Assembly (NCBI GenBank): GCA_031256235.1
Contig: JAIRQZ010000009.1
Span: forward strand, 1-47,779
Origin: Christensenellaceae bacterium
GTDB taxonomy: Bacteria > Bacillota > Clostridia > Christensenellales > UBA1242
Length of the DNA stretch: 47,779 nucleotides
Direction: 5' to 3'
In this document: piece after piece, positions 2,436 through 14,748 of the stretch
Position numbering within the stretch: the first letter of the stretch is position 1
How the letters are laid out: each line of letters starts with the position of its first letter
Made by a program: the position numbers and the translations under genes
The notes under the pieces: model-generated
Seen by the model: the letters and a program-made list of their open reading frames with translations, nothing else
Told to the model about the DNA's origin: nothing
Database searches by the model: none

Positions 2436-2627
2436 TTGAAAAACAAAGTTTTGATACTTGCGTATATGGGCACGGGCAAAACAGAAGTGGCGCGCCGTTA
2501 TCAAAATGTCGTCGACCACGACTTTCAAGATTACAAATTTATATACGACAAGTCCATAGCACACTTGCCGATTGTCATAAAACGTGGTCAATTCTTGGAC
2601 GAAGTGATTAAACAACTTCTTTTTTAG
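2436..2627 (+). pseudogene. Short P-loop NTPase N-terminal fragment (possible gene remnant)
   Basis: A TTG immediately after the tRNA CCA opens KNKVLILAYMGTGKTEVARRY (beta strand plus Walker A GTGKT). The frame stops after about 63 codons and its end overlaps the clpX 3' end. Confidence 0.25.
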
Positions 2628-3921
2628 GTATAGCCTTACACTCAAGTTTGGCGCGTTCGGACTTTTCGATAACGCGTTTCGTTATGAATACTTTGCCACT
2701 TTTTTCGGTTCCGCTGATTTCGGTTGGGGTTTCGTACATGATGTCAAGCATGCTTTCTTCAAGTATCGTTCGCAAGGCCCGCGCTCCAGTTTTTAACTGC
2801 ATCGCAAGTTCGGCGACGGCTTCAATGGCCTCGTCGTCGAAATCAAGTTCGATATTGTCAAGCGCGAACATTTTTTTGTACTGCTTTATAAGGGCGTTTT
2901 TGGGTTTGGTCAAAATTTTGACAAGCGCCTGTTTGTTAAGAGCCTGTAGCCCAACGATAATGGGCACGCGGCCGACGAATTCGGGGATGATACCGTATTT
3001 GACAAGGTCGACGGGCGAAACGGAATGAATATCGGCAATCTCTTGCGATTCGCCAGAATCCTCCTTTAGTTCCGCGCCAAAGCCCATGGATGTGCCGTGC
3101 AATCGGCTTGACACGATTTTTTCAAGGCCGACAAAAGCGCCACCCACGATGAAAAGGATGTTTTGAGTATTAATTTGGATGCATTCTTGGTTCGGATGTT
3201 TGCGTCCGCCTTGTGGAGGCACGTTTGCAATTGTGCTTTCAATAATTTTTAAAAGCGCCTGTTGCACACCCTCACCAGAAACGTCGCGTGTAATCGAGCG
3301 GTTTTCGCCTTTCTTGGCAATTTTGTCGATTTCGTCGATGTAAATTATTCCGCGTTCTGCGCGCGCAACGTCGTAATCGGCGGCCTGGATAAGTTTTAAC
3401 AAAATGTTTTCAACGTCTTCGCCGACATATCCCGCCTCGGTCAAAGCAGTCGCATCCGCTACGGCGAAAGGCACATCAAGAATACGGGCAAGCGTCCGAG
3501 CCATAAGAGTCTTTCCCGAACCCGTGGGGCCAATCATAAGGATGTTGCTTTTTTCAAGTTCGATATCGTCTTCTTTGTCTTTGCGGGATTTTGTCGCAAC
3601 CTTCTCGACATTGTTTTGTAATGTGGTTCGATCGGAAAGATTATAATTAACGCGCTTGTAATGATTGTAAACAGCAACGGCAAGGACCTTCTTGGCGGCG
3701 TCTTGGCCAATTATGTAATCATCCAACTTCGACTTGATTTCCGCGGGCGTCGGAAGTTTCAACAACGATGTTTCCGCAGTCTTGCGCTGTTCCATAAGCA
3801 TGATGTTGGAACATGTCGAGATGCACGAGTCGCAAATGAAACTTTTGCCGTTGGGACTGGCAATTATTTTTTTTACTTCATGGTTACTGCGACCGCAAAA
3901 ACTGCAAAATGTGTTAATCAT
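2608..3921 (-). CDS. clpX: ATP-dependent Clp protease ATP-binding subunit ClpX
   Basis: It has the N-terminal C4 zinc finger (CSFCG...CDSC), Walker A GPTGSGKT, Walker [10 protein letters not shown] and ClpX-typical length. Confidence 0.95.
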
Positions 3922-3949
3922 ATCCTATTATACTCCATATATTACCTTT

Positions 3950-4528
3950 TTATCGCTTAACAAAAACTTTGTCGATAAGTCCGTAATCTTTTGCTTCGGC
4001 GGCCGTCATGTAATAGTCACGCTCGCAATCGGCAGCGACTTTGTCAAGTTGTTGGCCAGCATTTTCGGATAAAATTTTTGTAAGTTTCTTCTTAAGTTTC
4101 AATATGTGTTCGGCCTGGATTTGTATATCGGTTGCTTGGCCTTGCGCGCCACCCAAAGGTTGATGAATCATGATTTCACTGTTCGGCAAAGCATATCGCT
4201 TGCCTTTCGCGCCCGAGGACAACAGGAATGCCCCCATGCTTGCCGCCATGCCGACGCAAATCGTGGACACGTCGCATTTGATGTATTGCATAGTGTCATA
4301 AATCGCCAAGCCGTCGGTGACGCTTCCACCTGGGCTGTTGATATACAAACTTATGTCCTTGGTCGGGTCCTTGGCCTCCAAGAAAATCAGTTGCGCGATA
4401 ACAACATTGGCCGATTGGCTGTTGACCTCGCCGTTCAAGAATACAACGCGATCCTCCAAAAGACGGCTGTAGATATCATAACTACGTTCTCCGTTCCCCG
4501 TTTGGTCGATGACTATAGGTATTAACAT
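3950..4528 (-). CDS. clpP: ATP-dependent Clp protease proteolytic subunit ClpP
   Basis: [11 protein letters not shown], the catalytic Ser context [11 protein letters not shown] and MIHQPLGG match ClpP. The SD aggagg lies upstream. Confidence 0.95.
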
Positions 4529-4644
4529 AAAATCCTCCTAAAACTCTTTCGAATTAGCCCAATACGGGTTAACTATATTATATACGAATAACGATGATAA
4601 ACAAACTAAAATCGTGACTTTTATGTAGAAAGTATCTATTTTGA

Positions 4645-4678
4645 TGACACCAATTTTGGCACTTATTTTTTACACTAT
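4645..4678. repeat. Island-flanking imperfect direct repeat, clpP-side copy
   Basis: tgacaccaattttggcacttattttttacacta aligns with 13460-13493 at 27 of the first 33 positions. The core is tgacacNNattttggcact. Confidence 0.45.
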
Positions 4679-4775
4679 TTCAAAAGTGCCGTATAAATTT
4701 TATCGTATTTATACAGTCATTCTTTAGATTAGACGTGTTACCTATGGCAAACAGCACATTAGGACAAAACTTTTC

Positions 4776-4797
4776 AAACCAGCAACCGCTGGTTTTT
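4776..4797. terminator. Hairpin terminator at the distal end of the island operon
   Basis: AAACCAGC-aacc-GCTGGTTT has an A-run on one side and a T-run on the other (bidirectional form). It starts 6 nt past the stop of the last operon gene. Confidence 0.4.
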
Positions 4798-4802
4798 ACA
4801 TA

Positions 4803-5123
4803 TCAAAAAGGAGACACTTGACTAGGATTTTTACCTCTTGAATGGATAATAAGATCACAAACTATTGATTGAACGACCGCTTCATTACCTGTCACAATAG
4901 TTTTCACACGTCCTTCGTTCCTATTGTACTCGACGTCAACTTTGTAGTGAGAAATCTTTGTCTGCCATTTTTTGTTTTCTAAATGCCTTTTCAATGCACC
5001 GCATAGAGTTCGTTCGGATACATCGTCATAAAATAAGTCTTTGTCTATTTTCAAAAAAGAAGCATTTGCCTTTTCAAATAAGTCTAACAAAAATTCATAG
5101 TCTTCGTCACAATCGTAGTTCAT
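4803..5123 (-). CDS. Small protein with a partial PD-(D/E)xK nuclease-like pattern (last gene of island operon)
   Basis: SERTLCGALKRHLE ... YKVDVEYNR ... VCDLIIHSRG resembles helix-E plus the (P)D strand of restriction-endonuclease-fold proteins. The ORF ends 12 aa later without an (D/E)xK strand. The ATG at 5123 has SD aaggaaa; the ORF track starts at a TTG at 5147. Confidence 0.3.
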   Translation of the reverse strand: MNYDCDEDYEFLLDLFEKANASFLKIDKDLFYDDVSERTLCGALKRHLENKKWQTKISHYKVDVEYNRNEGRVKTIVTGNEAVVQSIVCDLIIHSRGKNPSQVSPF

Positions 5124-5133
5124 TATTTTCCTT

Positions 5134-5556
5134 TTATCTTTGTACAATTCCTAAATAGGATTCTTTATATCCATAATACCTCTTCAAATAAACAGCAGTA
5201 TTCATAACTGAAGCAAATGCAAAAACCGGAAGAGCCGATTTCATATTAAATAACAAACCTGCCCAAATATACGCAGAAAATGAAACATTAACCGTAAATA
5301 CAGGAAAAGCAAAATAGCATATTATATCAATAATTACAGAGTAGATTAGAATGGATACAGACCTTACTATCTGATTATTGAATCTTTTAAGCGCCAGTGA
5401 CACAAAGTAAATAACACCTAAATTGAGGAATAAAAATGGTATTGTATTTGCTGTTGACGTACAGAATAAATAAACAGCCAGAATTGCAAGCGCTCCATAA
5501 CCTATAAACTTGTTTTTTTGTGCTACCCCATACATTAGGAAACCTGATATTGGCAT
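5134..5556 (-). CDS. Small polytopic membrane protein (4-5 TM), possibly an ECF S-component-like vitamin-binding subunit
   Basis: Hydrophobic helices run throughout. A strong SD agggagga lies upstream. It sits directly downstream of a DUF4430 gene. The function is inferred from context only. Confidence 0.35.
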   Translation of the reverse strand: MPISGFLMYGVAQKNKFIGYGALAILAVYLFCTSTANTIPFLFLNLGVIYFVSLALKRFNNQIVRSVSILIYSVIIDIICYFAFPVFTVNVSFSAYIWAGLLFNMKSALPVFAFASVMNTAVYLKRYYGYKESYLGIVQR

Positions 5557-5570
5557 TTGTTAATCCTCCC

Positions 5571-6020
5571 TTAATACCCCCAGTAAGATGCGTCCACATA
5601 TCTTAAAACAATCACATCGCCGTCCTTCACTCGGTATGCAGAAACACCGACTGCTGCTTGCTGAAAGTTTACTTCAAATGCCCAAGCGTACCCTGTTCCA
5701 GCACCCCAATCATAGTTGTCATCCTTGCCCATCGCAGAAGTAATTAACATACCGTAACTTGACTCTGTGTATCCAAGTTGCATAACTGATTTATTCTCTT
5801 TTAAAATATCCGCAACTAGATTTGATTTATAATCTTTTGAACTTATGAACTTAATCTCCACCGCACTTTCGTCTAAAATTGAGATACTAATATTTTTAAC
5901 TGCAACTTTGGGAGCAGGTATCAATGTCCAAATCATTAATCCAACCAAAACAACTGCCAAAGCAATATTAATATATAACGATATTTTACTTGGTCGCTTG
6001 TTTTGTGGTTGATTATCCAT
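5571..6020 (-). CDS. Membrane-anchored DUF4430 (transcobalamin beta-domain-like) protein
   Basis: It has an N-terminal TM anchor (ISLYINIALAVVLVGLMIWTLI). The C-terminal GYAWAFEVNFQQAAVGVSAYRVKDGDVIVLRY matches the DUF4430 signature GWxYxVNGxxxxxGxxxYxLKDGDxIxWxY. Its start overlaps the rSAM stop (ATGGATAA). Confidence 0.6.
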   Translation of the reverse strand: MDNQPQNKRPSKISLYINIALAVVLVGLMIWTLIPAPKVAVKNISISILDESAVEIKFISSKDYKSNLVADILKENKSVMQLGYTESSYGMLITSAMGKDDNYDWGAGTGYAWAFEVNFQQAAVGVSAYRVKDGDVIVLRYVDASYWGY

Positions 6021-7902
6021 TGTTTCTCCCTTTAATTTTGTCTTCAGTATCTTTTCTTGTGAAAGTATAATACTTTAACACCTTAAGGATATCCTTGTCA
6101 TCCGTTAGCGAGCTTATATCAGAAAAATTATTTTTTTCAACTATCCCCTTAAGTATTGATAGTTTTTCTTCTGGAAGCGCCCTGTAATCTCTCCACCACC
6201 TTCCGGTGCCACCATTTTTTTTGTTCTCTTCGCGGTAGATAATAAACGCTTCTGGCATATAAAGTATTTTCTCAAATTCTTTTTCGTCTTTGCCAAATGC
6301 TACTTCAAAGAACCTCTTACCTTTTCCTATCTTCCCTTTTGTTGAATTTAGCACTGCTTGTATTGCTCTAATAAACTTACGGTTCCAATGTTTGCCAGTA
6401 TACTTGCGGTCTTTGTAGCTCCACTCATCTTCTTTCCCTTTGCCTGTGATAGGATGATATTTCATAGGAAATGAAAAAATACTGACCTTAAGTTCCTCAC
6501 AAAGGTCAATATTTAGCTTCATGCGCAAAAATAGTTCCTCCGGTTTATCGTTAAAGTTGTAAAGCATGTAATTTGAAAGTTCACGTATTCCACTTTTTGC
6601 AGCCATACGAACAGATGCTTCATATGTTTCTTTGCCAGCCCATTGGTCAAATGCAATGCGCAGTGGTGAGATATTTGTTTCGGCCAGCTTGTCCATTTTC
6701 TCTTGAGTAATAAGACGTGCGTCTACCCCTTGGTTAAAATCAATAATTCTTTTCAATGGTCCACGTTTAAAATACTTTGCAAAGAGTGGCGACATAAAGC
6801 TATCAAGCTCAAGTATTTTTTCCTTTGATGCCGAAAGATAATCACTACAAAATGCTCCGTTAATTTTGGATTCTGCTTCAGCGACTACGTCCTGCTTATC
6901 AAGTTTGGTCAATTTTTTTATTAGTTCTTTATATAAATCAACGCATACTCGAATGTATGCTCGCTCGTTAAAATTATCTCGTAAGTTTTTTATTGCAATC
7001 TCGTATTTGCTTTCAGGAATATAGGTCGCGCCGTGCTGAAAACCGCAACGTTTTATTTCATCAATAATATTTGAATAACACTTTGAAGCAAGCACATTAT
7101 TATCAAGCAAAAGCAAGTTCCGTTGTTCACCAAACCGCTCTTTTGATTTTGCAATTGTTTTTTCAAGCCCGATATAATGCTTAAACTCTGGCTCAAGCTT
7201 TGGTACAGCACAAAAACCACATTTATTTGTACACCCACGAGTCATATAAGCAAAGTAAGCGTCGTGCGCTGGGTACTTATACTCAACTTCTTCCAAAATC
7301 GAATAATCAAGAGGTAATTCATCAATTATGTTCGTATCACCTTCATCAATGATACCAGGCTTATCTAATTGCCTTTCGAATGGTCTGATCCCTGTTTCTA
7401 GTTCAATTTCGTCAGGTAATAAGGATGCCATTATTCCACCAACCATTATCCGTCCGTCTGGCTTTCGAAATTTGTTTGCAAAGTTTATTGTTTCAATAGT
7501 TTTACTCCAATAAAATGTAAAAAGTGTTGTAACGCCCACGAAATCATAGACCGGATTATTTTTTATATAATCCTTATTTTTGAAGTTCTTTCTTGATGTT
7601 TGAATTTGTTCGACAATCTCACTTGACAAAATTTTGCAGATAAAATCAAAATCTTCATTTTTACCATGGCGAATAAACCTAAAAAAAAGCGGCTCTTGGC
7701 CGCACCAAGATTTGTCTGCCATGGTACACAATTGTTCCATAAAACGGTCGTATATAACTTCAGCACGAAGATCAAGTTCGCTACCCTTAAAAAAACGCAC
7801 ATCATCACCGCGCTCTCGAAAATAAGTCGCAAGTTTCATCAACCCCATCGGTGGGTACTTGTTGCGATAGTTAGGTTCGATTAAAAGCACTTTTCTTTTC
7901 AC
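6013..7902 (-). CDS. Radical SAM enzyme with N-terminal B12-binding-like domain (class B type)
   Basis: The N-terminus VLLIEPNYRNKYPPMGLMKLATYFRERGDDV is a Rossmann-like B12-binding-domain pattern. The CxxxCxxC cluster is MTRGCTNKCGFCAV. It is 629 aa long with a long uncharacterised C-terminal region. The GTG start overlaps the upstream stop (TAGTG) and has SD aaggag. Confidence 0.8.
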   Translation of the reverse strand: MKRKVLLIEPNYRNKYPPMGLMKLATYFRERGDDVRFFKGSELDLRAEVIYDRFMEQLCTMADKSWCGQEPLFFRFIRHGKNEDFDFICKILSSEIVEQIQTSRKNFKNKDYIKNNPVYDFVGVTTLFTFYWSKTIETINFANKFRKPDGRIMVGGIMASLLPDEIELETGIRPFERQLDKPGIIDEGDTNIIDELPLDYSILEEVEYKYPAHDAYFAYMTRGCTNKCGFCAVPKLEPEFKHYIGLEKTIAKSKERFGEQRNLLLLDNNVLASKCYSNIIDEIKRCGFQHGATYIPESKYEIAIKNLRDNFNERAYIRVCVDLYKELIKKLTKLDKQDVVAEAESKINGAFCSDYLSASKEKILELDSFMSPLFAKYFKRGPLKRIIDFNQGVDARLITQEKMDKLAETNISPLRIAFDQWAGKETYEASVRMAAKSGIRELSNYMLYNFNDKPEELFLRMKLNIDLCEELKVSIFSFPMKYHPITGKGKEDEWSYKDRKYTGKHWNRKFIRAIQAVLNSTKGKIGKGKRFFEVAFGKDEKEFEKILYMPEAFIIYREENKKNGGTGRWWRDYRALPEEKLSILKGIVEKNNFSDISSLTDDKDILKVLKYYTFTRKDTEDKIKGRNNG

Positions 7903-9464
7903 TATGAAAACTCCTTTTCAATCATTGCTAATATTCTTTGATTTGCTTCTGCATCAACATTAATTGCAATAATATCAAGTATTTTCCCTATAATTTTGCG
8001 CTCTACTTTACTACATCTTTTTAATCTATCGGTCCACCAAGCCTTTTTATTCTTATTATCTTCATTTGTTTCTCCCACACTTTTCTCAACTATATTTGCA
8101 TCACGATGTGTTCTTATTATATTAGCAACTTTACCTTGCAACGAGTCTTCCTCTAGACTTTCAATCTTCTTTCTAATATCTGTTTCAGCCTTCTCGGCAT
8201 TCGCCCTTATTTCAGCAAGTTCGCTTTCAAGTTTGTTTTTTTCAGCATTCCCAACAAAAGAATTCTCTTTTTTCTTTTTATCAAATTCTTTCTTTTTAAT
8301 GTTATATATTTCGATTTTTTTGTAAGAGCTGTTTATAGATGATGCGTTGTAATAAGTTCTATAGAGCTCGTCGTCAAAATATTTTTTGAGTTCAACTTCA
8401 AACTTCTCGCTCGAAGAATTAGTGTTAAAATAATCACGCTGCGAATTAGGTATTAAGTTTTTATCTATTGTAAAAACTTCACCAATAAAATAATTATTGC
8501 CTCTGTCTTCTTTAAATAATTTTTCCAAAGCGTTTTCATCGCCAATTTGGATGTTTTCTTTTCTAAGCCTTATTCCTCGCATTTTGTTTGACTTTGGAAT
8601 GGCTTGTTTAAACTGGCAAACTCCAATCCATGACCAAGCAATTAAACTTTTATCGTCACTGTAAAAACCCTTGAACGCAATATCCTTGACCTCGTCATAC
8701 TTTTTCTCACCATTTGTTAAGTGCGTAATGTATTTTTTATAAACATCTTCACCATTTATTTTAACAATATATTCATCAATTGGATACCCTATTTCCTTTG
8801 CTTGCTTGTAAATCTCTTCACGAAATCTAAATGTGTTTTGATAAGGAACAGGTGCTACAAATGATAGATATTCTTTAACTTTAATAATGTTTAATAAACC
8901 ATTATTGTGTTTGTCAATATTCTCTAATTTTACAACAAAAAAATGGCTTTCAGTATTCTCCGTTTTTTCTGAACTGAAGGAGTAAATTTCTTTCAATATT
9001 TCGGTAGCACTATATTTTTTCTCTTTTGTTTGATGCTTGTTTAAGAGCTCACGCATTCTTTTGGCATCACAGGACATTGTTGAAATAATATTTTCACCCT
9101 TGCATTTTGTTGAAAAAACTAGTTTATCACAAAATGCCATTCCGCAAAGCCTTCCTATTCCACGAAATCCCTTATCTTCGCCAAGTGTTTTATCTGAACT
9201 TGCCACATTAACTAATATCCTTTGGAAATCATCTTTGGATATTCCTGTTCCGTTATCTTTAATTTCAATACTTTTTGCAGATTGGTCTATCCATATTTCA
9301 ACTAAACCCTCATTTTTATTAGAAATTATTTCTTGTTCAACTGCTTTATCAATAGAATCACAAGCATTTTGAATATATTCTCTATAACAAACGAAGGGAT
9401 TTTTATACATCCCTGTCGTTAAACTATCTAAAATATTCGCACCAAAAATAATTTGTTCTTCCAT
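7902..9464 (-). CDS. GHKL (Bergerat-fold) ATPase, MORC/Hsp90/MutL-like, with C-terminal coiled-coil
   Basis: It has N box EYIQNACDS, G1 box DNGTGIS and G2 box GFRGIGRLCG. The C-terminal region is Lys/Glu-rich heptad-like (NKLESELAEIRANAEKAETDIRKKIESLEE). Confidence 0.75.
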   Translation of the reverse strand: MEEQIIFGANILDSLTTGMYKNPFVCYREYIQNACDSIDKAVEQEIISNKNEGLVEIWIDQSAKSIEIKDNGTGISKDDFQRILVNVASSDKTLGEDKGFRGIGRLCGMAFCDKLVFSTKCKGENIISTMSCDAKRMRELLNKHQTKEKKYSATEILKEIYSFSSEKTENTESHFFVVKLENIDKHNNGLLNIIKVKEYLSFVAPVPYQNTFRFREEIYKQAKEIGYPIDEYIVKINGEDVYKKYITHLTNGEKKYDEVKDIAFKGFYSDDKSLIAWSWIGVCQFKQAIPKSNKMRGIRLRKENIQIGDENALEKLFKEDRGNNYFIGEVFTIDKNLIPNSQRDYFNTNSSSEKFEVELKKYFDDELYRTYYNASSINSSYKKIEIYNIKKKEFDKKKKENSFVGNAEKNKLESELAEIRANAEKAETDIRKKIESLEEDSLQGKVANIIRTHRDANIVEKSVGETNEDNKNKKAWWTDRLKRCSKVERKIIGKILDIIAINVDAEANQRILAMIEKEFS

Positions 9465-9479
9465 TGTTTACCTCTAATT

Positions 9480-11159
9480 TTACTTAAATTGCTTATATAT
9501 TGGTTTTGGGAATCTAACTTTTAATAAAGACCTGAATACTGGATTTTGCAAGATATACTCTCCTTGATCTAATCGTGTGAGCATATTCTTGTAAGTTGAA
9601 TGGATACTTGAATAACTACTTGTTGAGGTTTCTATTGAGTTTGTTCGCCCGTAAGCGTGTGTCGCACAGTTTCCAGTGACACGTTTGTGAATATCAGACC
9701 TAAACTGTTCTGCACCAAACAACACAACACCCAATGAACGACCTCTCTCTGCTACATCCAATATTCCTCTAAGTATAGGTGAATGCTTTGGCGCATCTGT
9801 GCCAGCATATTTATTTAATTCATCAATAAAAACAACAATACGCTCCGGTGGATTTACACCATGTTCCTCGCTGAAAACATCTTGCTTGAGGTCGTAAATA
9901 GTTCTTAAGCAATCACCGAAAACAAAAGCCTGCTTATCCTCCGCCAGCTTTGCAATATCTACAACAAAAACATCATTTGCTTTAATTTGCTTTAATTCGT
10001 CTTGCAAACGACATTCATTGTTTTGTTTGCTAAATCCATTTGCGAACATGCTATCGTTTTTAATAGCTTTTGAAACTATTCTTTTAAACTTGCGCCAACT
10101 CATAATTGAGATTTCATCTTTCTGTGATTTCGGGTCACCTTTCTGTGTCTTTTCAGAAACTTTATCTAAGAAATCCTGCCAAGTGTCAAGACCGTTAAAC
10201 TCACCATCGCCAATTATCTTTTCAATAATTGACTCCATTGTCTGCGTAGTATCATCAATATTTGCAAACATCATCTCGATGCTTTCTTTATCATCTTTAT
10301 ACAGATATTTATATTTCTTCAACTGTTGTGCTCTTATGTAATTATCAACATCGTCTTTACCCATGTATGTAGATTGACGCGAATCAGAGGACGCAGAGTA
10401 TGGGATAAAATATTTAACATTTTCGAACGGTTTATCGATTAAACCTAATCTTTTGTATTCTTCTTTTACCTTAACTGACGCATCGCTTTCGTTCTCTTTA
10501 TCAATGGCCAACAAATCTCTGCCCTTAACATTAAAAATTACAAAAGCAGTTTTGCGCGCATCTTCGTTTTGTTGATTATAATCTTGAATAGCTTTAAGCA
10601 AAAACATTGCGTATGAAGTTTTTGTAGCCAAACCAGAAATACCTGAAATATTCAAATGTGCTCCTTCTGGACCAAGTAGAAATTCACTATTAAGATGTAC
10701 TGGCAAGATAACTGGGTTTTCTGTTCCAGCATACATTTTTAAAGAACCGCAAAGTAATTTGTGTTCAATTTTGTCAAGACCTAATGCCTGTATGATTTCT
10801 TCTTCGGTAGCTAAATAAACCTTATCATTATTGTGAACAGGTGTTTCATTGCCTTTAGTATTAAATGAAACTTTTGCTTCTACATAATTCATACCTACTC
10901 GCAACGTCGGTTCCAGCAACTCTGTGTCGCCAAAATCCGAAGAAATGAAGTTAGTTAAGAAACTTTGTGCGTCAGTAATATGCAAAATATTTTCGATGAC
11001 ACCAAAAGTATGTGAACCATCTCTTCGTTCCACTTTTACAACATCAAAAGCGTGCAACCTTAGATCAGAGTTTGTCCAAAATTTGAACTCATCGATTGTG
11101 GTCGGATACTTCTCCGTCGCCAACACCTTACCAATTGCCACTTTAGTTTCTTTTCCCAT
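9480..11159 (-). CDS. HerA/FtsK-superfamily ATPase (HerA-like, DUF87-type)
   Basis: The N-terminal barrel-like segment is IGKVLA...FDVVKVER...TFGVIENI. It has a deviant P-loop NISGISGLATKTSYAMFLL, Walker B RIVVFIDELNKY and a downstream RSLGVVLFGAEQ...THAYGRT. The start is set at the ATG at 11159 with SD aaggaga; the ORF track extends to 11219. Confidence 0.65.
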   Translation of the reverse strand: MGKETKVAIGKVLATEKYPTTIDEFKFWTNSDLRLHAFDVVKVERRDGSHTFGVIENILHITDAQSFLTNFISSDFGDTELLEPTLRVGMNYVEAKVSFNTKGNETPVHNNDKVYLATEEEIIQALGLDKIEHKLLCGSLKMYAGTENPVILPVHLNSEFLLGPEGAHLNISGISGLATKTSYAMFLLKAIQDYNQQNEDARKTAFVIFNVKGRDLLAIDKENESDASVKVKEEYKRLGLIDKPFENVKYFIPYSASSDSRQSTYMGKDDVDNYIRAQQLKKYKYLYKDDKESIEMMFANIDDTTQTMESIIEKIIGDGEFNGLDTWQDFLDKVSEKTQKGDPKSQKDEISIMSWRKFKRIVSKAIKNDSMFANGFSKQNNECRLQDELKQIKANDVFVVDIAKLAEDKQAFVFGDCLRTIYDLKQDVFSEEHGVNPPERIVVFIDELNKYAGTDAPKHSPILRGILDVAERGRSLGVVLFGAEQFRSDIHKRVTGNCATHAYGRTNSIETSTSSYSSIHSTYKNMLTRLDQGEYILQNPVFRSLLKVRFPKPIYKQFK

Positions 11160-11169
11160 TTTTTTCTCC

Positions 11170-12366
11170 TTAAAATAACTGCAGAAAACTCTCTGCTGAT
11201 ATATATTTTGATTTGACATATGTTTCTGTCATATACATCGGATAAATATGATTTGCCCATCGTAAATCCGAGCCATAACACACTGGGTTTCGCTCGTTTA
11301 TGATATACGCACTCAACGTGTCCACTAACTCGCTGTCAATTCCGTTTTCAATTTCTTCGCTTGTTACTAGCATCTTTTCTACTTTTAATATTCCGTCAAA
11401 TGGAGTCCTAGTTTTCTCTTGACCTTGTAAACGAATATACCAAACAGCAAAGTCAACATCACCACAGAATTCATTATGATAACGCGCCACAGGAGTTCTA
11501 CTATACAATGGCAAATCTGCAATAAATCCTGGATTTGGTTTCCCATTAATATCGCAACAAACTGAAGGATTAAAATGCTTGGACGCACCTAATACGAAAT
11601 TGTAATTCTGTTTAAACTTCGCAAATTGTTTCTTTTTCTCCTCTTTAGTTATATCTTTTTCATAAACAGGTTGAGAGTATTCAAGCGAGCCATCTTTCAC
11701 TAAATAATTATTTTGGTCTAGTTTTCCTTGGCTGACAAATAATGCAACCATTTCTTTTTCTTTTTCAATCATTCTGTCCTGGACTTTTGCAGTCGCTCGG
11801 TCTTCACACTCTCCATCTTTCTTAATATCATTAGTTTTATAACCCAAAACAGATCCGATTTTAATGCCGAGTCTTTTTAATTGATTACAAGTTTGTGAAA
11901 TCTTTAAGGCGAGTTGCGAAAAGAACTCTTCTTTTCTATCGGCATTAGCTTTCTCAGGCACGGCTAAAACAATTTCGTTAATGCATCTTTCCTGTTTTAA
12001 TATTCTATTTTTTCGTTTACAACATCCTACTCCTATTTGCCCAGCAATTATTGGATAAATTTCCATGCGATTACCCGAAGCATCATAACCCACATTATCA
12101 ACTTTATATACCTTCCTTGATCCATCTAAAAAATAAGTTAATATTTGTGAATCCCCATGTGATAGTTCTTTAGCCTTTTGTGTCAAATTTATCCATGTTT
12201 TATACTTTTCAGTTTCGCCGTATTTTTGCCACACATTTGATTTTTCTCTTTCGTCAAAACTTATTGCCGAATAATCGCCACTATCTAAACTATATTTACG
12301 CGCCTTATAACTTTTCCCACCTGTTTCGGTTTCGAGGATAGCGGTTATCTTTCGTTTTTCTAACAT
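11170..12366 (-). CDS. NurA-like nuclease
   Basis: It has two DGS motifs in beta-strand contexts (LTYFLDGSRKVY and YLVKDGSLEY) and a C-terminal ANHIYPMY segment, as in NurA-domain proteins. It lies immediately upstream of a HerA-like ATPase, the canonical pairing. Confidence 0.5.
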   Translation of the reverse strand: MLEKRKITAILETETGGKSYKARKYSLDSGDYSAISFDEREKSNVWQKYGETEKYKTWINLTQKAKELSHGDSQILTYFLDGSRKVYKVDNVGYDASGNRMEIYPIIAGQIGVGCCKRKNRILKQERCINEIVLAVPEKANADRKEEFFSQLALKISQTCNQLKRLGIKIGSVLGYKTNDIKKDGECEDRATAKVQDRMIEKEKEMVALFVSQGKLDQNNYLVKDGSLEYSQPVYEKDITKEEKKKQFAKFKQNYNFVLGASKHFNPSVCCDINGKPNPGFIADLPLYSRTPVARYHNEFCGDVDFAVWYIRLQGQEKTRTPFDGILKVEKMLVTSEEIENGIDSELVDTLSAYIINERNPVCYGSDLRWANHIYPMYMTETYVKSKYISAESFLQLF

Positions 12367-12375
12367 ATGAACTTA

Positions 12376-12404
12376 TATGTATCACAAATTTACATGAAAG
12401 TCAA
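12376..12404 (-). promoter_or_regulatory. Candidate promoter of the island operon
   Basis: On the minus strand it reads TTGACT, a 17-nt spacer ending in TGa (extended -10), then TACATA. The -10 ends 9 nt before the ATG at 12366, and there is no SD. Confidence 0.35.
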
Positions 12405-12459
12405 ACCCAAAAACATCACGAAAGTCCAGTTAACAGTACACTACTTTGCTTTTCATACT

Positions 12460-13383
12460 TCAAACGAGAGACAAATAATGATCAAGCGACTTCTCTGCGA
12501 CTGAAATTACCAGCTTAACAAATGTGGTATAATCTTTTGTAACGTGCGCATGGTCGAGCGCGTCATAGTACTCAAGGCGCTGTTCCCTACGAATTATTAA
12601 TGGCGGGAAGCCATTCTTAATCGCAATGAAATTCATCAGTAGCCTTGCAGTGCGCCCGTTGCCGTCAACGAAGGGGTGGATTCTAACAAATTCACCATGA
12701 AGTAATGCCGAAACGACAAGCGGATGGTATTGCTTTGACCAGGTCTTTAAGTCAAGCGTTAGTTGTTCCATTTGTTCAGGAACGAAAATATGGTCCGGGG
12801 GAATATGTGTGGCGCCGGAAATGATAACCTTCTCGTTGCGATAACGGCCAGCGTTCTCTTGGTCGATTTCTTTTAATACAAGCTGATGAATACTTTTGAT
12901 GTCGCGTTCAATGAGAACAGAATTCTTACTTACTAGCTCCTCAAGATACAAGATTGCCTCTTTGTGGTTTATTGCCTCAAGATGTTCCTTAACGCTCTTG
13001 CCACCAATTGTGATGCCCTCGAGGACAACCTTTGTCTCTTTAAGTGTTAAAGTATTTCCTTCGATACCGTTGCTGTTGTATGTCCATTCAATAAGTTCGT
13101 TGGACTTGATGCTTTTAATCGTCGCAATCGGAAAGGGACGCTTACTGTTTAACAGTGCAAGTTTTTCATCGATGGTTGCAAGGTTACTTGGCAAGTTAAT
13201 TATGAACTCACTTGGCTTTACACTAACACGAGTATCACGTGGCTTCTTAACATCGTTTGGAATCAGCCAGGATTTACCCATTTTGGTTGCACCTTGGATG
13301 CGCCCTTCTTCTATGAGTTGCCTTATTCTTCTTTCGCTTATGCCCCATTCTTTCGAGAGGTCGTTCAAGGTTTTGTATTCCAT
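12460..13383 (-). CDS. Fic family protein (class II, AMPylase-type) with N-terminal HTH
   Basis: It has the Fic motif HPFVDGNGRTAR, the intramolecular inhibitory motif SNGIEGN ((S/T)xxxE(G/N)) and an N-terminal excisionase/MerR-like HTH (LSKEWGISERRIRQLIEEGRI). Confidence 0.9.
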   Translation of the reverse strand: MEYKTLNDLSKEWGISERRIRQLIEEGRIQGATKMGKSWLIPNDVKKPRDTRVSVKPSEFIINLPSNLATIDEKLALLNSKRPFPIATIKSIKSNELIEWTYNSNGIEGNTLTLKETKVVLEGITIGGKSVKEHLEAINHKEAILYLEELVSKNSVLIERDIKSIHQLVLKEIDQENAGRYRNEKVIISGATHIPPDHIFVPEQMEQLTLDLKTWSKQYHPLVVSALLHGEFVRIHPFVDGNGRTARLLMNFIAIKNGFPPLIIRREQRLEYYDALDHAHVTKDYTTFVKLVISVAEKSLDHYLSLV

Positions 13384-13387
13384 ATCT

Positions 13388-13418
13388 ATATCCTACCGCA
13401 TACGGAAGGATATGTCAA
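13388..13418 (-). promoter_or_regulatory. Fic promoter with overlapping palindromic operator
   Basis: On the minus strand it reads TTGACA (13413-13418), a 17-nt spacer, then TAGGAT (13390-13395), with 6 nt to the ATG. An imperfect 26-nt palindrome ATATCCT-n12-AGGATAT (13388-13413) covers the spacer and -10. Confidence 0.45.
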
Positions 13419-13459
13419 CACATTATTACATAAGGAATTAAAAAGATTATCGGATTTTC

Positions 13460-13493
13460 TGACACTCATTTTGGCACTCAATTTTTACTGTAA
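13460..13493. repeat. Island-flanking imperfect direct repeat, tig-side copy
   Basis: tgacactcattttggcactcaatttttactgta aligns with 4645-4678. It lies between the tig terminator and the Fic promoter. Confidence 0.45.
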
Positions 13494-13605: not shown

Positions 13606-14748
13606 TTATTTTGCCTCCTTTAATTTATTATGTGTTTCAAGGAATTTTATAACCGAATCAAAGTCTTTCAAGTTTTCTTTCTTTGCAATGGCGTCCAAAA
13701 TAAGGGCGACTTTTGCGCTGTTTTGGGCGTTATTGCGTTGGATTTTTTCAATCTTTTCCACGGTCGACCCGATTGCAGTTGCGTACATTTCAAGAGTATA
13801 GCCACTTTGTGCAAGACTTTGCTGGGTGTCGTGCATTATTTGATGAAAATATCGGGCGACAAGTTTATCGTGCACATCAACTTTTGTGTTGTCGCAAATC
13901 ACGCGCAACAGCTCTTGTTCGTTAAGTTTGTCACTTTCGATTTTGGATTGCTTTTCCAAACGCGCTCGAATGTCCTTTTTGAACTCGGCCAAGGTGTTGA
14001 ACTCGCTTGATTCCTTTGCCAAATTGTCGTCAATCGCAGGAATTTCACGGATTAGGATGTTGCGGATTTCAACTTTAAAAACGGACTTTGCGCCTGCCAA
14101 TTCCTTGGCGTGGTAGTCTTTTGGGAAAGTCACGTTCACATCAAGTTTGTCACCAACTGTTTTGCCAACAAGTTGTTCTTCAAACGTGTCGATGAACGAA
14201 TGCGAACCAATTTCAAGTTCATGGTTTTTGGCCTCGCCACCCGCAAACTTTTTGCCATCGACAAAGCCCGTGAAATCGATAACCGCGATATTGCCGTTTG
14301 CGATTTTGTGACCTTTGTCCGCCGCGATTTGACGAGTACGGCCACCAGCCACACGAGCCAGGAAACCGTCAACTTCTTTGTCTGTGACTTTTATTGTTTT
14401 TGAATTAATCTCAAGCCCCGTATATTTGCCAAGTGTGAATTTGTCCTGGACTGGGATTACCGCAATAAACTCGATACCGTCAGGTTTTTGGCTTATATCA
14501 ACCTCGGGGTCGTCCAAAGGCGTCACATTCGGGTTACCTTCCAGATACTTTGAAAAGGCCTTGTTGAACAGTGCATTGAAAGCAGGTTCAGTAAAAACAT
14601 CGCCATATTCCTTTTCAATCATGCCGCGTGGAGCGTTGCCGTCGCGAAAGCCCTTGACCTTGTATCGGGCGCCCTCGCGCTTGCAAGCCTCGTCCATAGC
14701 GGTGTCGACCTGCGCCTTTGTGAAGTTAAATTTTGCTGTTACATTCAT
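13606..14748 (-). CDS. tig: Trigger factor (compact, 380 aa)
   Basis: It has the ribosome-binding motif GFRDGNAP and the FKBP-type PPIase segment VIDFTGFVDGKKFAGGEAKNHELEIGSHSFIDTFEEQLVG. Confidence 0.9.
   Translation of the reverse strand: MNVTAKFNFTKAQVDTAMDEACKREGARYKVKGFRDGNAPRGMIEKEYGDVFTEPAFNALFNKAFSKYLEGNPNVTPLDDPEVDISQKPDGIEFIAVIPVQDKFTLGKYTGLEINSKTIKVTDKEVDGFLARVAGGRTRQIAADKGHKIANGNIAVIDFTGFVDGKKFAGGEAKNHELEIGSHSFIDTFEEQLVGKTVGDKLDVNVTFPKDYHAKELAGAKSVFKVEIRNILIREIPAIDDNLAKESSEFNTLAEFKKDIRARLEKQSKIESDKLNEQELLRVICDNTKVDVHDKLVARYFHQIMHDTQQSLAQSGYTLEMYATAIGSTVEKIEKIQRNNAQNSAKVALILDAIAKKENLKDFDSVIKFLETHNKLKEAK

Follow-up and report, generated by a model that had tools for sequence, protein, structure and literature searches.

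A horizontally mobile NurA-HerA-GHKL-radical SAM gene cassette as a candidate anti-phage or anti-plasmid system

The closest described relatives of the genes considered here are nucleases and effectors that work with HerA-family hexameric ATPases. In Deinococcus radiodurans, the NurA-HerA machine (DR0836/DR0837; PDB 7F6D, 7WRW) feeds a free DNA end by way of a NurA dimer to a stable hexamer of HerA, and the DNA is cut while it is translocated (PMC9960219). HerA-family hexameric ATPases are also combined with an enzymatic effector in the Sir2-HerA and DUF4297-HerA ('Gao_Her') systems of defence islands and mobile genetic elements (MGEs). Here we analyse a 47,779-nt stretch of DNA from a Christensenellaceae bacterium (contig JAIRQZ010000009.1; the whole stretch is called the window below), in which seven close-packed minus-strand genes, g1 to g7 (4803-12366), had been proposed in a preliminary description as one undescribed system. 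The first four genes encode a NurA-fold nuclease, a HerA translocase, a GHKL ATPase and a radical S-adenosylmethionine enzyme (radical SAM enzyme; rSAM), and together they almost certainly form a four-gene functional unit. A conflict or defence role for this cassette is likely, and we put slightly above an even chance the more specific reading that it is a horizontally mobile anti-phage or anti-plasmid system in which the rSAM and the GHKL ATPase carry out modification or sensing and NurA-HerA is the effector.

The four genes were traced by a motif scan for rSAM relatives in a one-genome-per-species collection, in which 466 stretches among 185,579 species genomes encode such a relative. The family is large, with at least 7,969 relatives in a word-indexed search of 5.8 billion proteins and 246 clusters at 50% identity in an exhaustive search (E <= 1e-30). 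A first survey of 86 loci, consisting of the best 80 of the 466 stretches and six contigs from exact look-ups, was searched by tblastn with the window proteins, and g1, g2, g3 and g4 were present in 76, 82, 85 and 86 of them, respectively. Wherever a locus is long enough to hold them, the genes are colinear in the order g1-g2-g3-g4 and equally closely spaced. Furthermore, 11 IMG/VR contigs carry the full set in the same order at identities down to 33, 44, 36 and 38% for g1 to g4, and the identities of the four proteins co-vary across loci. The proposed co-localisation of rSAM, GHKL, HerA and NurA homologues is therefore found in about 100 independent loci, across phyla and domains. The proposed seven-gene system did not survive the same comparison: g5, g6 and g7 are absent from all 97 other cassette loci (86 surveyed and 11 viral).

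Hosts of the cassette include Clostridia (the majority), Bacteroidales, Planctomycetota, Chlorobiaceae, Cloacimonadota and Desulfosporosinus, as well as the cultured Heliomicrobium modesticaldum Ice1 and methanogenic archaea (Methanosarcina, Methanomicrobiales), and they are mostly strict anaerobes. Between phyla, and between bacteria and archaea, cassette identity is 50-60%, which implies frequent transfer.

The likeness to the Deinococcus machine is most direct for the bacterial-type hexameric translocase g2 (9480-11159; 559 aa from the internal ATG used as its start by NCBI). In phmmer, g2 matches D. radiodurans HerA (7f6d_B) at 1.9e-41 over two stretches that span both protein ends, residues 2-257 and 336-555 of g2 aligning to residues 8-271 and 386-594. 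The P-loops are the same motif and align residue for residue (GISGLATKTS in g2, GISGVATKTS in D. radiodurans), the Walker B stretches read VFIDELNKYA and VVLDELNKYA, and ERGRSLG of the arginine-finger region is common to both. The Walker B and the 'deviant' P-loop from which g2 had been called HerA-like thus both align with D. radiodurans HerA; g2 is a Deinococcus-type HerA, and the unusual P-loop is the hallmark of that type. Weak matches to PADLOC mad8 (1.7e-9) and NCBIfam HerA were also obtained.

The first core gene, g1 (11170-12366; 398 aa), sits 10 nt 5' of g2, an adjacency kept in 76 of the 76 loci that have g1, and the nurA-herA order and close spacing are shared with Deinococcus. Its sequence matched no Pfam model at E <= 0.1, including that of NurA, and no match to solved NurA chains or to the PDB was found by sequence or with a 26-sequence profile. 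Because the sequence-level NurA test failed, the identity of g1 was resolved by fold search. All significant Foldseek matches of its AlphaFold2 (AF2) model in the PDB are NurA structures, drawn from three solved NurA proteins, and the best of them is D. radiodurans NurA (7f6d_G, 9.6e-11), with TM1739 (1zup) at 5e-7 and Sso NurA (2ygk) at 5e-6. The model is poor overall (mean predicted local distance difference test score, pLDDT, 52), reaching about 70-80 across much of residues 81-220, and its core runs beta-beta-beta-alpha-beta-alpha-beta. The two DGS motifs that had prompted the NurA assignment contain D81 (FLDGSR) and D225 (KDGS), both invariant in 26 homologues and placed at the ends of core strands in this low-confidence model, where they may be catalytic. 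Other invariant residues are D90, E203, E330, E358, H373 and E381. The 61%-identical protein HM1_1332 carries the automatic UniRef name 'NurA domain-containing'.

There are also clear differences from Deinococcus. The best fold match of g1 is D. radiodurans NurA, yet its sequence has no detectable similarity to solved NurA proteins or to Pfam NurA; in the cassette, genes for a GHKL ATPase and a B12-type rSAM invariably come after the pair; and, unlike a stable repair operon found throughout a lineage, the cassette is mobile and lies in islands. The Sir2-HerA and DUF4297-HerA systems share with the cassette the pairing of a HerA-family hexameric ATPase with an enzymatic effector and the location in defence islands and on MGEs. 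However, the partner in the cassette is NurA, no Sir2 or DUF4297/Cap4-like domain occurs in the seven proteins, g2 matches none of the PADLOC HerA models of these systems, and the GHKL ATPase and the rSAM have no counterpart in them.

The third gene, g3 (7902-9464; 520 aa), encodes a GHKL ATPase whose middle domain is specific to the family and whose tail is coiled-coil or helical. It matches Pfam HATPase_c_3 at 3.7e-11, and its Bergerat-fold residues in the N-box, G1 and G2 motifs (E29, N33, D36, D70, G74, G99, G102 and G104) do not vary among 29 orthologues and paralogues. MORC and paraMORC GHKL ATPases have reportedly been linked to restriction-modification contexts, in work by Iyer, Abhiman and Aravind from 2008, and they resemble g3 in pairing a GHKL ATPase and a coiled-coil region and in being encoded near nucleases in neighbourhoods of conflict type. 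The GHKL part of the earlier 'MORC-like' label is secure, but the MORC part is not: in the PDB, the g3 profile finds the N-domains of Hsp90, HtpG and TRAP1 at about 1e-10, with Grp94 also among the best matches, and neither MORC nor MutL is among the top 60 matches. Searches with the g3 sequence alone and against NCBIfam likewise place its N-domain nearest to HtpG, Hsp90 and TRAP1. The Hsp90-type matches cover only about the first 90 residues, and g3 has no PADLOC match. It appears closer to Hsp90/HtpG than to MORC, with an S5 domain possible in residues 150-400.

The fourth gene, g4 (6013-7902; 629 aa), encodes a radical SAM enzyme of class-B architecture, its N-terminal part being a Rossmann domain of the B12-binding type. 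Pfam matches are weak (B12-binding at 5.4e-5, under the curated cut-off; Radical_SAM at 6.5e-3, sub-threshold), no match to the PDB was found by sequence or with a 120-sequence profile, and no informative Pfam domain was found in longer rSAM relatives of 680-820 aa. The cysteines of the CxxxCxxC motif (C224, C228 and C231) are invariant in 120 rSAM homologues, and the AF2 model is confident (pLDDT 88, predicted template modelling score, pTM, 0.85). Its top Foldseek matches are TsrM (6wtf, 1e-6), MgmA (9ccb, 6.5e-6) and AprD4 (6fd2, 3e-4). TsrM and MgmA are cobalamin-dependent rSAM methylases and AprD4 is an rSAM with a B12 domain; all three match the whole chain and have, like g4, a Rossmann-type B12-binding domain at the N-terminus and then a TIM-barrel with CxxxCxxC. 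Unlike these enzymes, to which it is only 10-14% identical with low TM-scores of 0.30-0.53, g4 has a helical insert (about residues 42-115) and a helical C-terminal domain of about 120 residues, and it is encoded beside nucleases and ATPases instead of biosynthetic genes. A viperin-type rSAM was considered and rejected, as g4 has no PADLOC match at E <= 0.1 and its fold neighbours are class-B enzymes. Overall, the assignments of NurA, HerA, GHKL and a radical SAM with a B12-binding-type N-domain stand after profile and fold tests, and dependence of g4 on cobalamin (vitamin B12) is probable.

PADLOC v2 gave no match for g1, g3 or g4 and only the weak, superfamily-level mad8 match for g2, while NCBIfam (June 2026) contained no family-level match for any of the four core proteins. 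The mad8 match points to the methylation-associated defence system MADS (mad1-8), which likewise consists of several genes, lies in islands and brings together modification and ATPase components (bioRxiv 10.1101/2023.03.30.534895). MADS was rejected, since mad6, mad7 and mad8 together are mandatory and the weak mad8 match was the only one among the eight proteins scanned; the cassette also lacks a methyltransferase, a specificity subunit and a kinase, and the similarity is at the level of the FtsK/HerA superfamily only. In the full-text literature to October 2026, which leaves most subscription journals outside, the combination is not described; a reappraisal of Dnd systems and a paper on archaeal 'dark matter' contain the relevant terms separately and do not describe the cassette. 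Within these limits, the four-gene cassette is undescribed in the literature and defence catalogues searched, in agreement with the earlier statement that no named system combines all four components. In kind, it would be a HerA-plus-nuclease, island-borne conflict system, with a substantial chance that the rSAM chemistry makes it categorically new.

The rSAM-GHKL pair also occurs with other partners. In a tblastn search of plasmids, shorter rSAMs of 35-40% identity were found on conjugative alphaproteobacterial plasmids. On pNL1 of Novosphingobium aromaticivorans (NC_009426.1, 114946-125348), genes for a PIN_8 nuclease (651 aa) and a GHKL protein (533 aa) accompany a second set consisting of a DndB/DGQHR protein (335 aa), an rSAM (537 aa) and a further GHKL protein (507 aa), which is 32% identical to g3 (3e-55); a convergent DndB-HEPN protein is also present. 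Rhizobium pR132505 carries a set of the pNL1 type together with an SNF2 helicase and a ParB-domain protein. NurA and HerA are absent from both loci, which have the appearance of a sister system equipped with another nuclease module. The rSAM-GHKL pair is thus the shared and more ancient core, with exchangeable nuclease modules and with DndB-like DNA-binding proteins as recurrent partners. In this respect the distant pairs resemble Dnd and Dpd systems, as they directly follow a DndB-family gene and are flanked by nuclease, SNF2 and ParB genes. In contrast to those systems, no DndACDE, DpdA/TGT, or sulfur or deazapurine biosynthesis genes are present, the cassette in the window has no DndB-like gene, and its modification, if any, would be based on radical SAM and cobalamin. 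Of the two mechanisms first proposed, self-marking by the rSAM and an rSAM product that would act as signal or inhibitor, the DndB-like link of the distant pair leans towards the version in which nucleic acid is modified.

Of the three remaining genes in the window, g5 (5571-6020) encodes a membrane-anchored protein with one N-terminal hydrophobic span (residues 10-41) and, as had been proposed, a DUF4430 domain (2.7e-8). Vertebrate transcobalamins carry DUF4430 as their C-terminal domain (PMC4350170). The next gene, g6 (5134-5556), encodes a small polytopic membrane protein of 140 aa with no Pfam family and a faint match to SLATT_6 (0.042); its membrane nature agrees with the preliminary description, but a crude hydropathy scan gives 3-4 hydrophobic spans instead of 4-5. 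The word-indexed search of 5.8 billion proteins found two g6 homologues, one of them on a 1.6-kb sister contig (L087) with 67% DNA identity to window positions 5200-6480. The gene order there is rSAM C-terminus, DUF4430, g6 homologue and a different fourth gene, and therefore the g5-g6 pair, but not g7, is kept behind the rSAM in the closest known relative. From its first 45 residues, in which only the motif 'ENPR' (...LDIENPRF) can be pointed to, the fourth gene of L087 is possibly ParB-like.

A degenerate-pattern scan of JGI metagenomes added seven g6 relatives of 40-52% identity, and in all six loci with upstream DNA a DUF4430 gene precedes the g6 relative. No cassette genes were found in these metagenome loci, and g5 alone had no match among the metagenome contigs. 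In three of the four long contigs, an RF00174 cobalamin riboswitch lies directly 5' of the g5-g6-type operon, with scores of 80-88 bits (E ~1e-18 to 1e-20), and the module of a DUF4430 protein and a membrane protein of about 140 aa occupies 6142-8438 in L106, 7181-8441 in L107 and 6154-8444 in L108. In L106 and, by 95% identity, in L108, the pair is followed by a gene for D-ornithine 4,5-aminomutase, an adenosylcobalamin enzyme. A gene of 315-323 aa also stands 5' of the module in L106 and L108. As its homologues stand behind cobalamin riboswitches and beside ornithine aminomutase, and as DUF4430 is of transcobalamin type, g5-g6 is best read as a predicted corrinoid capture and uptake module of the B12 regulon, with g5 as putative corrinoid binder and g6 as putative uptake component. 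The pair evolves separately and is attached to the cassette only in the window and in L087, a lineage-specific add-on; RF00174 was not found in the window, where the pair is translationally coupled to the rSAM gene and is probably driven from the cassette. The recruitment of this pair behind the rSAM gives independent, circumstantial support for real cobalamin use by the enzyme. The membrane module is thus not a part of the system in the sense first proposed, as g5-g6 belongs to a cobalamin-riboswitch regulon and is absent from the 97 other cassette loci.

The last gene, g7 (4803-5123; 106 aa from its ATG), is a doubtful member that probably shares the transcript in the window but is not conserved with the cassette: it is absent from L087, where another gene takes its place, and from all other loci. 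A weak PD-Lambda-3_A match (5e-4; profile positions 22-104 of 159) is the sole basis for the nuclease-like fold that had been suggested for it, and no match was found in Pfam or NCBIfam. The gene ends just before the hairpin described below and may be the truncated remnant of a nuclease-like gene.

The neighbourhoods of the cassette were examined through 129 non-redundant open reading frames (ORFs) of at least 180 aa around it. Recurrent families, as raw counts, are PADLOC PDC-S01 (6), AbiEi (5), SIR2 (4), Schlafen-AlbA_2 (4), Mob_Pre (4) and AAA_25 (4), and serine recombinases, tyrosine integrases and RES proteins are also found. In about 10 loci an AbiEi/AbiEii pair lies directly 5' of g1, mostly ending about 10 nt (up to 21 nt) before it, and may be co-transcribed with the cassette. 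An AbiEi-like antitoxin gene with a protein of about 300 aa, judged AbiEii-like from its sequence, was noted in L021, L022, L023, L025, L028, L041, L062, L068 and L086, the latter with the AbiEii-like gene split, whereas L027 and L030 have the AbiEi-like gene alone. At least 14 loci have a small XRE or HTH_17 gene ahead of g1. Single loci are associated with a SIR2-TPR protein and a PLD-helicase, with integrase, ParB, NikA, TnpV and HipA in a setting like that of an integrative and conjugative element (ICE), with a field of insertion sequence (IS) elements in Heliomicrobium, and with NOV_C in an archaeon, while the viral contigs have terminase, integrase, repressor and Mu-type transposition genes nearby.

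On the 3' side of the rSAM the content is variable, and often there is nothing. About eight loci have a protein with Schlafen-AlbA_2, HATPase_c_4 and winged helix-turn-helix (wHTH) domains, and one has a RES-domain protein. In about 13 loci (e.g. L003, 11909-14126; L022, 11874-14156), a protein of 250-270 aa is found with a paralogous GHKL ATPase, which is 21-26% identical to g3 and matches HATPase_c_3 at 2.8e-14. Two representatives of the 250-270-aa protein gave no Pfam match, and BLAST of one representative found no similarity to the PIN_8 protein of pNL1. Altogether, the neighbourhoods are rich in defence genes and MGEs (AbiE, SIR2, integrase, Mob, terminase), in keeping with the suggested location in defence islands, and such a context is typical of mobile cargo carried by conflict islands. 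The phage record MT836743 was rejected as evidence of phage carriage, being an unverified 8.9-kb metagenome scaffold that holds just the cassette.

A few loci show decay of the cassette. Only short or truncated NurA and HerA remnants remain 5' of an intact GHKL ATPase and rSAM in L082 (7270-8413). In Butyricicoccus avistercoris (L001/L011, 8430-9999), the GHKL gene is split into ORFs of 303 and 159 aa with the other cassette genes intact, while the near-identical L002 has an intact GHKL gene. Such cases are too scarce to tell self-marking from other logics.

A possible mechanism can be outlined from the protein families involved. GHKL ATPases are ATP-gated dimerising clamps, and class-B rSAMs mostly methylate unactivated carbons. 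The rSAM would need cobalamin, a cofactor that g5-g6 would supply or secure. Translationally coupled, the rSAM and the GHKL ATPase would form a complex on nucleic acid, marking or interrogating it: the rSAM would install a radical modification, probably of the C-methyl type, and the ATP-gated GHKL clamp would discriminate or license. NurA-HerA would then be an ATP-driven effector that shreds, from an end, the DNA judged foreign. DNA as the rSAM substrate, with a self-marking logic, is a tentative part of this scheme and falls some way short of an even chance. In the most ambitious form, the rSAM-GHKL pair would install or read a radical-chemistry DNA mark (e.g. C-methylation at an unactivated carbon) that separates self from invader, swappable nucleases (NurA-HerA; PIN_8-GHKL) would restrict, and the cassette would be the first cobalamin-rSAM immune system, with a B12 need behind the uptake module in one lineage. 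Taken as a whole, this form is rather doubtful.

Several points weigh against a defence system built on cobalamin chemistry and NurA-HerA restriction. The defence role is argued only from context and mobility, because g1, g3 and g4 match no PADLOC family, and the split GHKL gene beside intact NurA-HerA genes in B. avistercoris would be awkward if the GHKL ATPase restrains a toxic nuclease. The predicted class-B architecture is in itself insufficient to prove B12 use by g4, because AprD4 has a B12-like domain and is not known to use cobalamin, and the B12 add-on is known from two loci only. Furthermore, the nearest structural relatives of g4 have substrates other than DNA, namely the amino acid tryptophan in free form for TsrM, a glutamine side chain in a protein for MgmA and an aminoglycoside sugar for AprD4. 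These substrates favour an alternative in which the cassette still serves defence and the rSAM either produces a small molecule (a signal or an antiviral nucleotide analogue) or acts as a modifying enzyme on one of its partner proteins (e.g. NurA, HerA or the GHKL ATPase), with NurA-HerA as the effector or under the control of the product. The rSAM enzymes of immunity known so far, the viperins, make nucleotide analogues, and the tight translational coupling of the GHKL and rSAM genes would fit an enzyme-partner complex. However, g4 has no viperin similarity in PADLOC or fold matches, its partners contain no small-molecule receptor or sensor domain in Pfam and NCBIfam scans, and the distant rSAM-GHKL pair adjoins DndB/DGQHR (ParB-like), SNF2 helicase and ParB proteins, which is the company of DNA modification. 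We therefore consider this alternative unlikely.

By analogy, the cassette might also be a DNA repair or recombination module of anaerobes, in which NurA-HerA resects ends and a MutL/Hsp90-like GHKL ATPase and an rSAM, comparable to spore photoproduct lyase, process a lesion. The Deinococcus NurA-HerA end-resection machine, to which g1 and g2 are homologous, is described as a repair machine and not as a defence system (PMC9960219), which also counts against the defence role; in addition, one locus lies beside SbcCD and the hosts are mostly strict anaerobes. A repair function is nevertheless quite improbable given the patchy presence (466 stretches in 185,579 species genomes) with frequent transfer, carriage in ICE-like, IS-rich, plasmid and prophage-like settings beside AbiE, SIR2, HipA and RES, the low-GC insertion in the window, and an rSAM fold that is class-B and not like spore photoproduct lyase. 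Mobility itself raises the question of whether the cassette serves the element that carries it, through exclusion of competitors, anti-defence (e.g. modification of its own DNA against host restriction) or processing of element DNA. Complete cassettes stand beside terminase, repressor and Mu-type transposition genes on the 11 IMG/VR contigs, and others are on conjugative plasmids or in ICE-like contexts. But defence systems are often found on prophages and ICEs, which makes carriage uninformative here, many chromosomal loci have no MGE genes within 10 kb (e.g. L089, between housekeeping genes), and a processive end-dependent nuclease is a typical anti-invader effector; service to the element is accordingly very improbable. 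The least probable alternative, which we regard as hardly credible, is that all seven genes are one system with the DUF4430 and transmembrane (TM) proteins as membrane effector or sensor. The co-orientation, the overlaps and gaps of at most 15 nt, the shared low GC, the g5-g6 pair 3' of the rSAM in L087 and the faint SLATT_6 match of g6 fit such a system, but g5-g7 are missing from the 97 other cassette loci, g5-g6 homologues exist without the cassette behind cobalamin riboswitches and beside a B12 enzyme, and g7 is replaced in L087.

If the cassette is a defence system, cobalamin/radical-SAM chemistry would be new enzymology in prokaryotic immunity, and the bacterial NurA-HerA machine would gain a role outside repair. 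The 466 stretches include many gut and rumen Clostridia and methanogens, which gives the cassette a bearing on phage-host dynamics in anaerobic microbiomes, a setting in which few systems have been put to the test. In addition, the rSAM-GHKL pair with its swappable nuclease partners could be used to mine further systems. The g5-g6 pair is of interest as a small unannotated candidate module for corrinoid capture and uptake with B12-riboswitch-regulated homologues, and its presence in the operon offers a rare genomic hint to the cofactor need of an uncharacterised enzyme.

In the window, eight minus-strand genes lie between clpX/clpP (2608-4528) and tig (13606-14748), namely a Fic gene with a helix-turn-helix (HTH) domain (12460-13383) and the close-packed g1-g7, for which the NCBI products are exactly the same ORFs. 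All junctions are as first described: TAA, 10 nt and ATG between g1 and g2, a gap of 15 nt between g2 and g3, a TAGTG overlap (-1 nt) between g3 and g4, a ATGGATAA overlap (-8 nt) between g4 and g5, and gaps of 14 nt between g5 and g6 and of 10 nt between g6 and g7. The AT-rich character reported for the block is also evident, with a GC content of 35.5% at 4674-13447 compared to 44.0% in the left flank and 44.8% in the right flank, and of 31-37% for each of g1 to g7. An imperfect 41-nt direct repeat brackets the whole inserted block; its copies are intergenic beside clpP (4633-4673) and between the Fic gene and tig (13448-13488), are 78% identical and lie 8815 nt apart. No integrase gene lies between them, and insertion could have left the repeat behind, as a duplicated target or promoter segment.

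The regulatory elements proposed at the two ends of the operon are present in the sequence but weaker than first suggested. The promoter-like element 5' of g1 (12376-12404; TTGACT, 17 nt, TACATA) was not listed by the consensus scan, and promoter-like sites across the region are at chance level (31 compared to 32.9 in shuffles). The hairpin 3' of g7 (4776-4797) is real, with an 8-bp stem and a 4-nt loop (centroid -11.4 kcal/mol), and is a possible terminator of the seven-gene transcript; however, it is modest (z = -1.98), the U-run 3' of its stem is interrupted, and the terminator-like sites of the scan do not include it. As a side observation, g1 has no recognisable Shine-Dalgarno sequence and about 10 nt separate its putative -10 element and the ATG (12364-12404), so g1 may be translated from a leaderless or near-leaderless mRNA. 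The Fic gene was met elsewhere in one surveyed locus only, at a different position, and accompanies the cassette in no other locus. Its product has an N-terminal HTH_17 domain and matches the PADLOC candidates PDC-S04 (9.6e-39) and SoFic (7e-31), and the gene has a host-like GC content (43%) yet lies inside the pair of 41-nt repeats.

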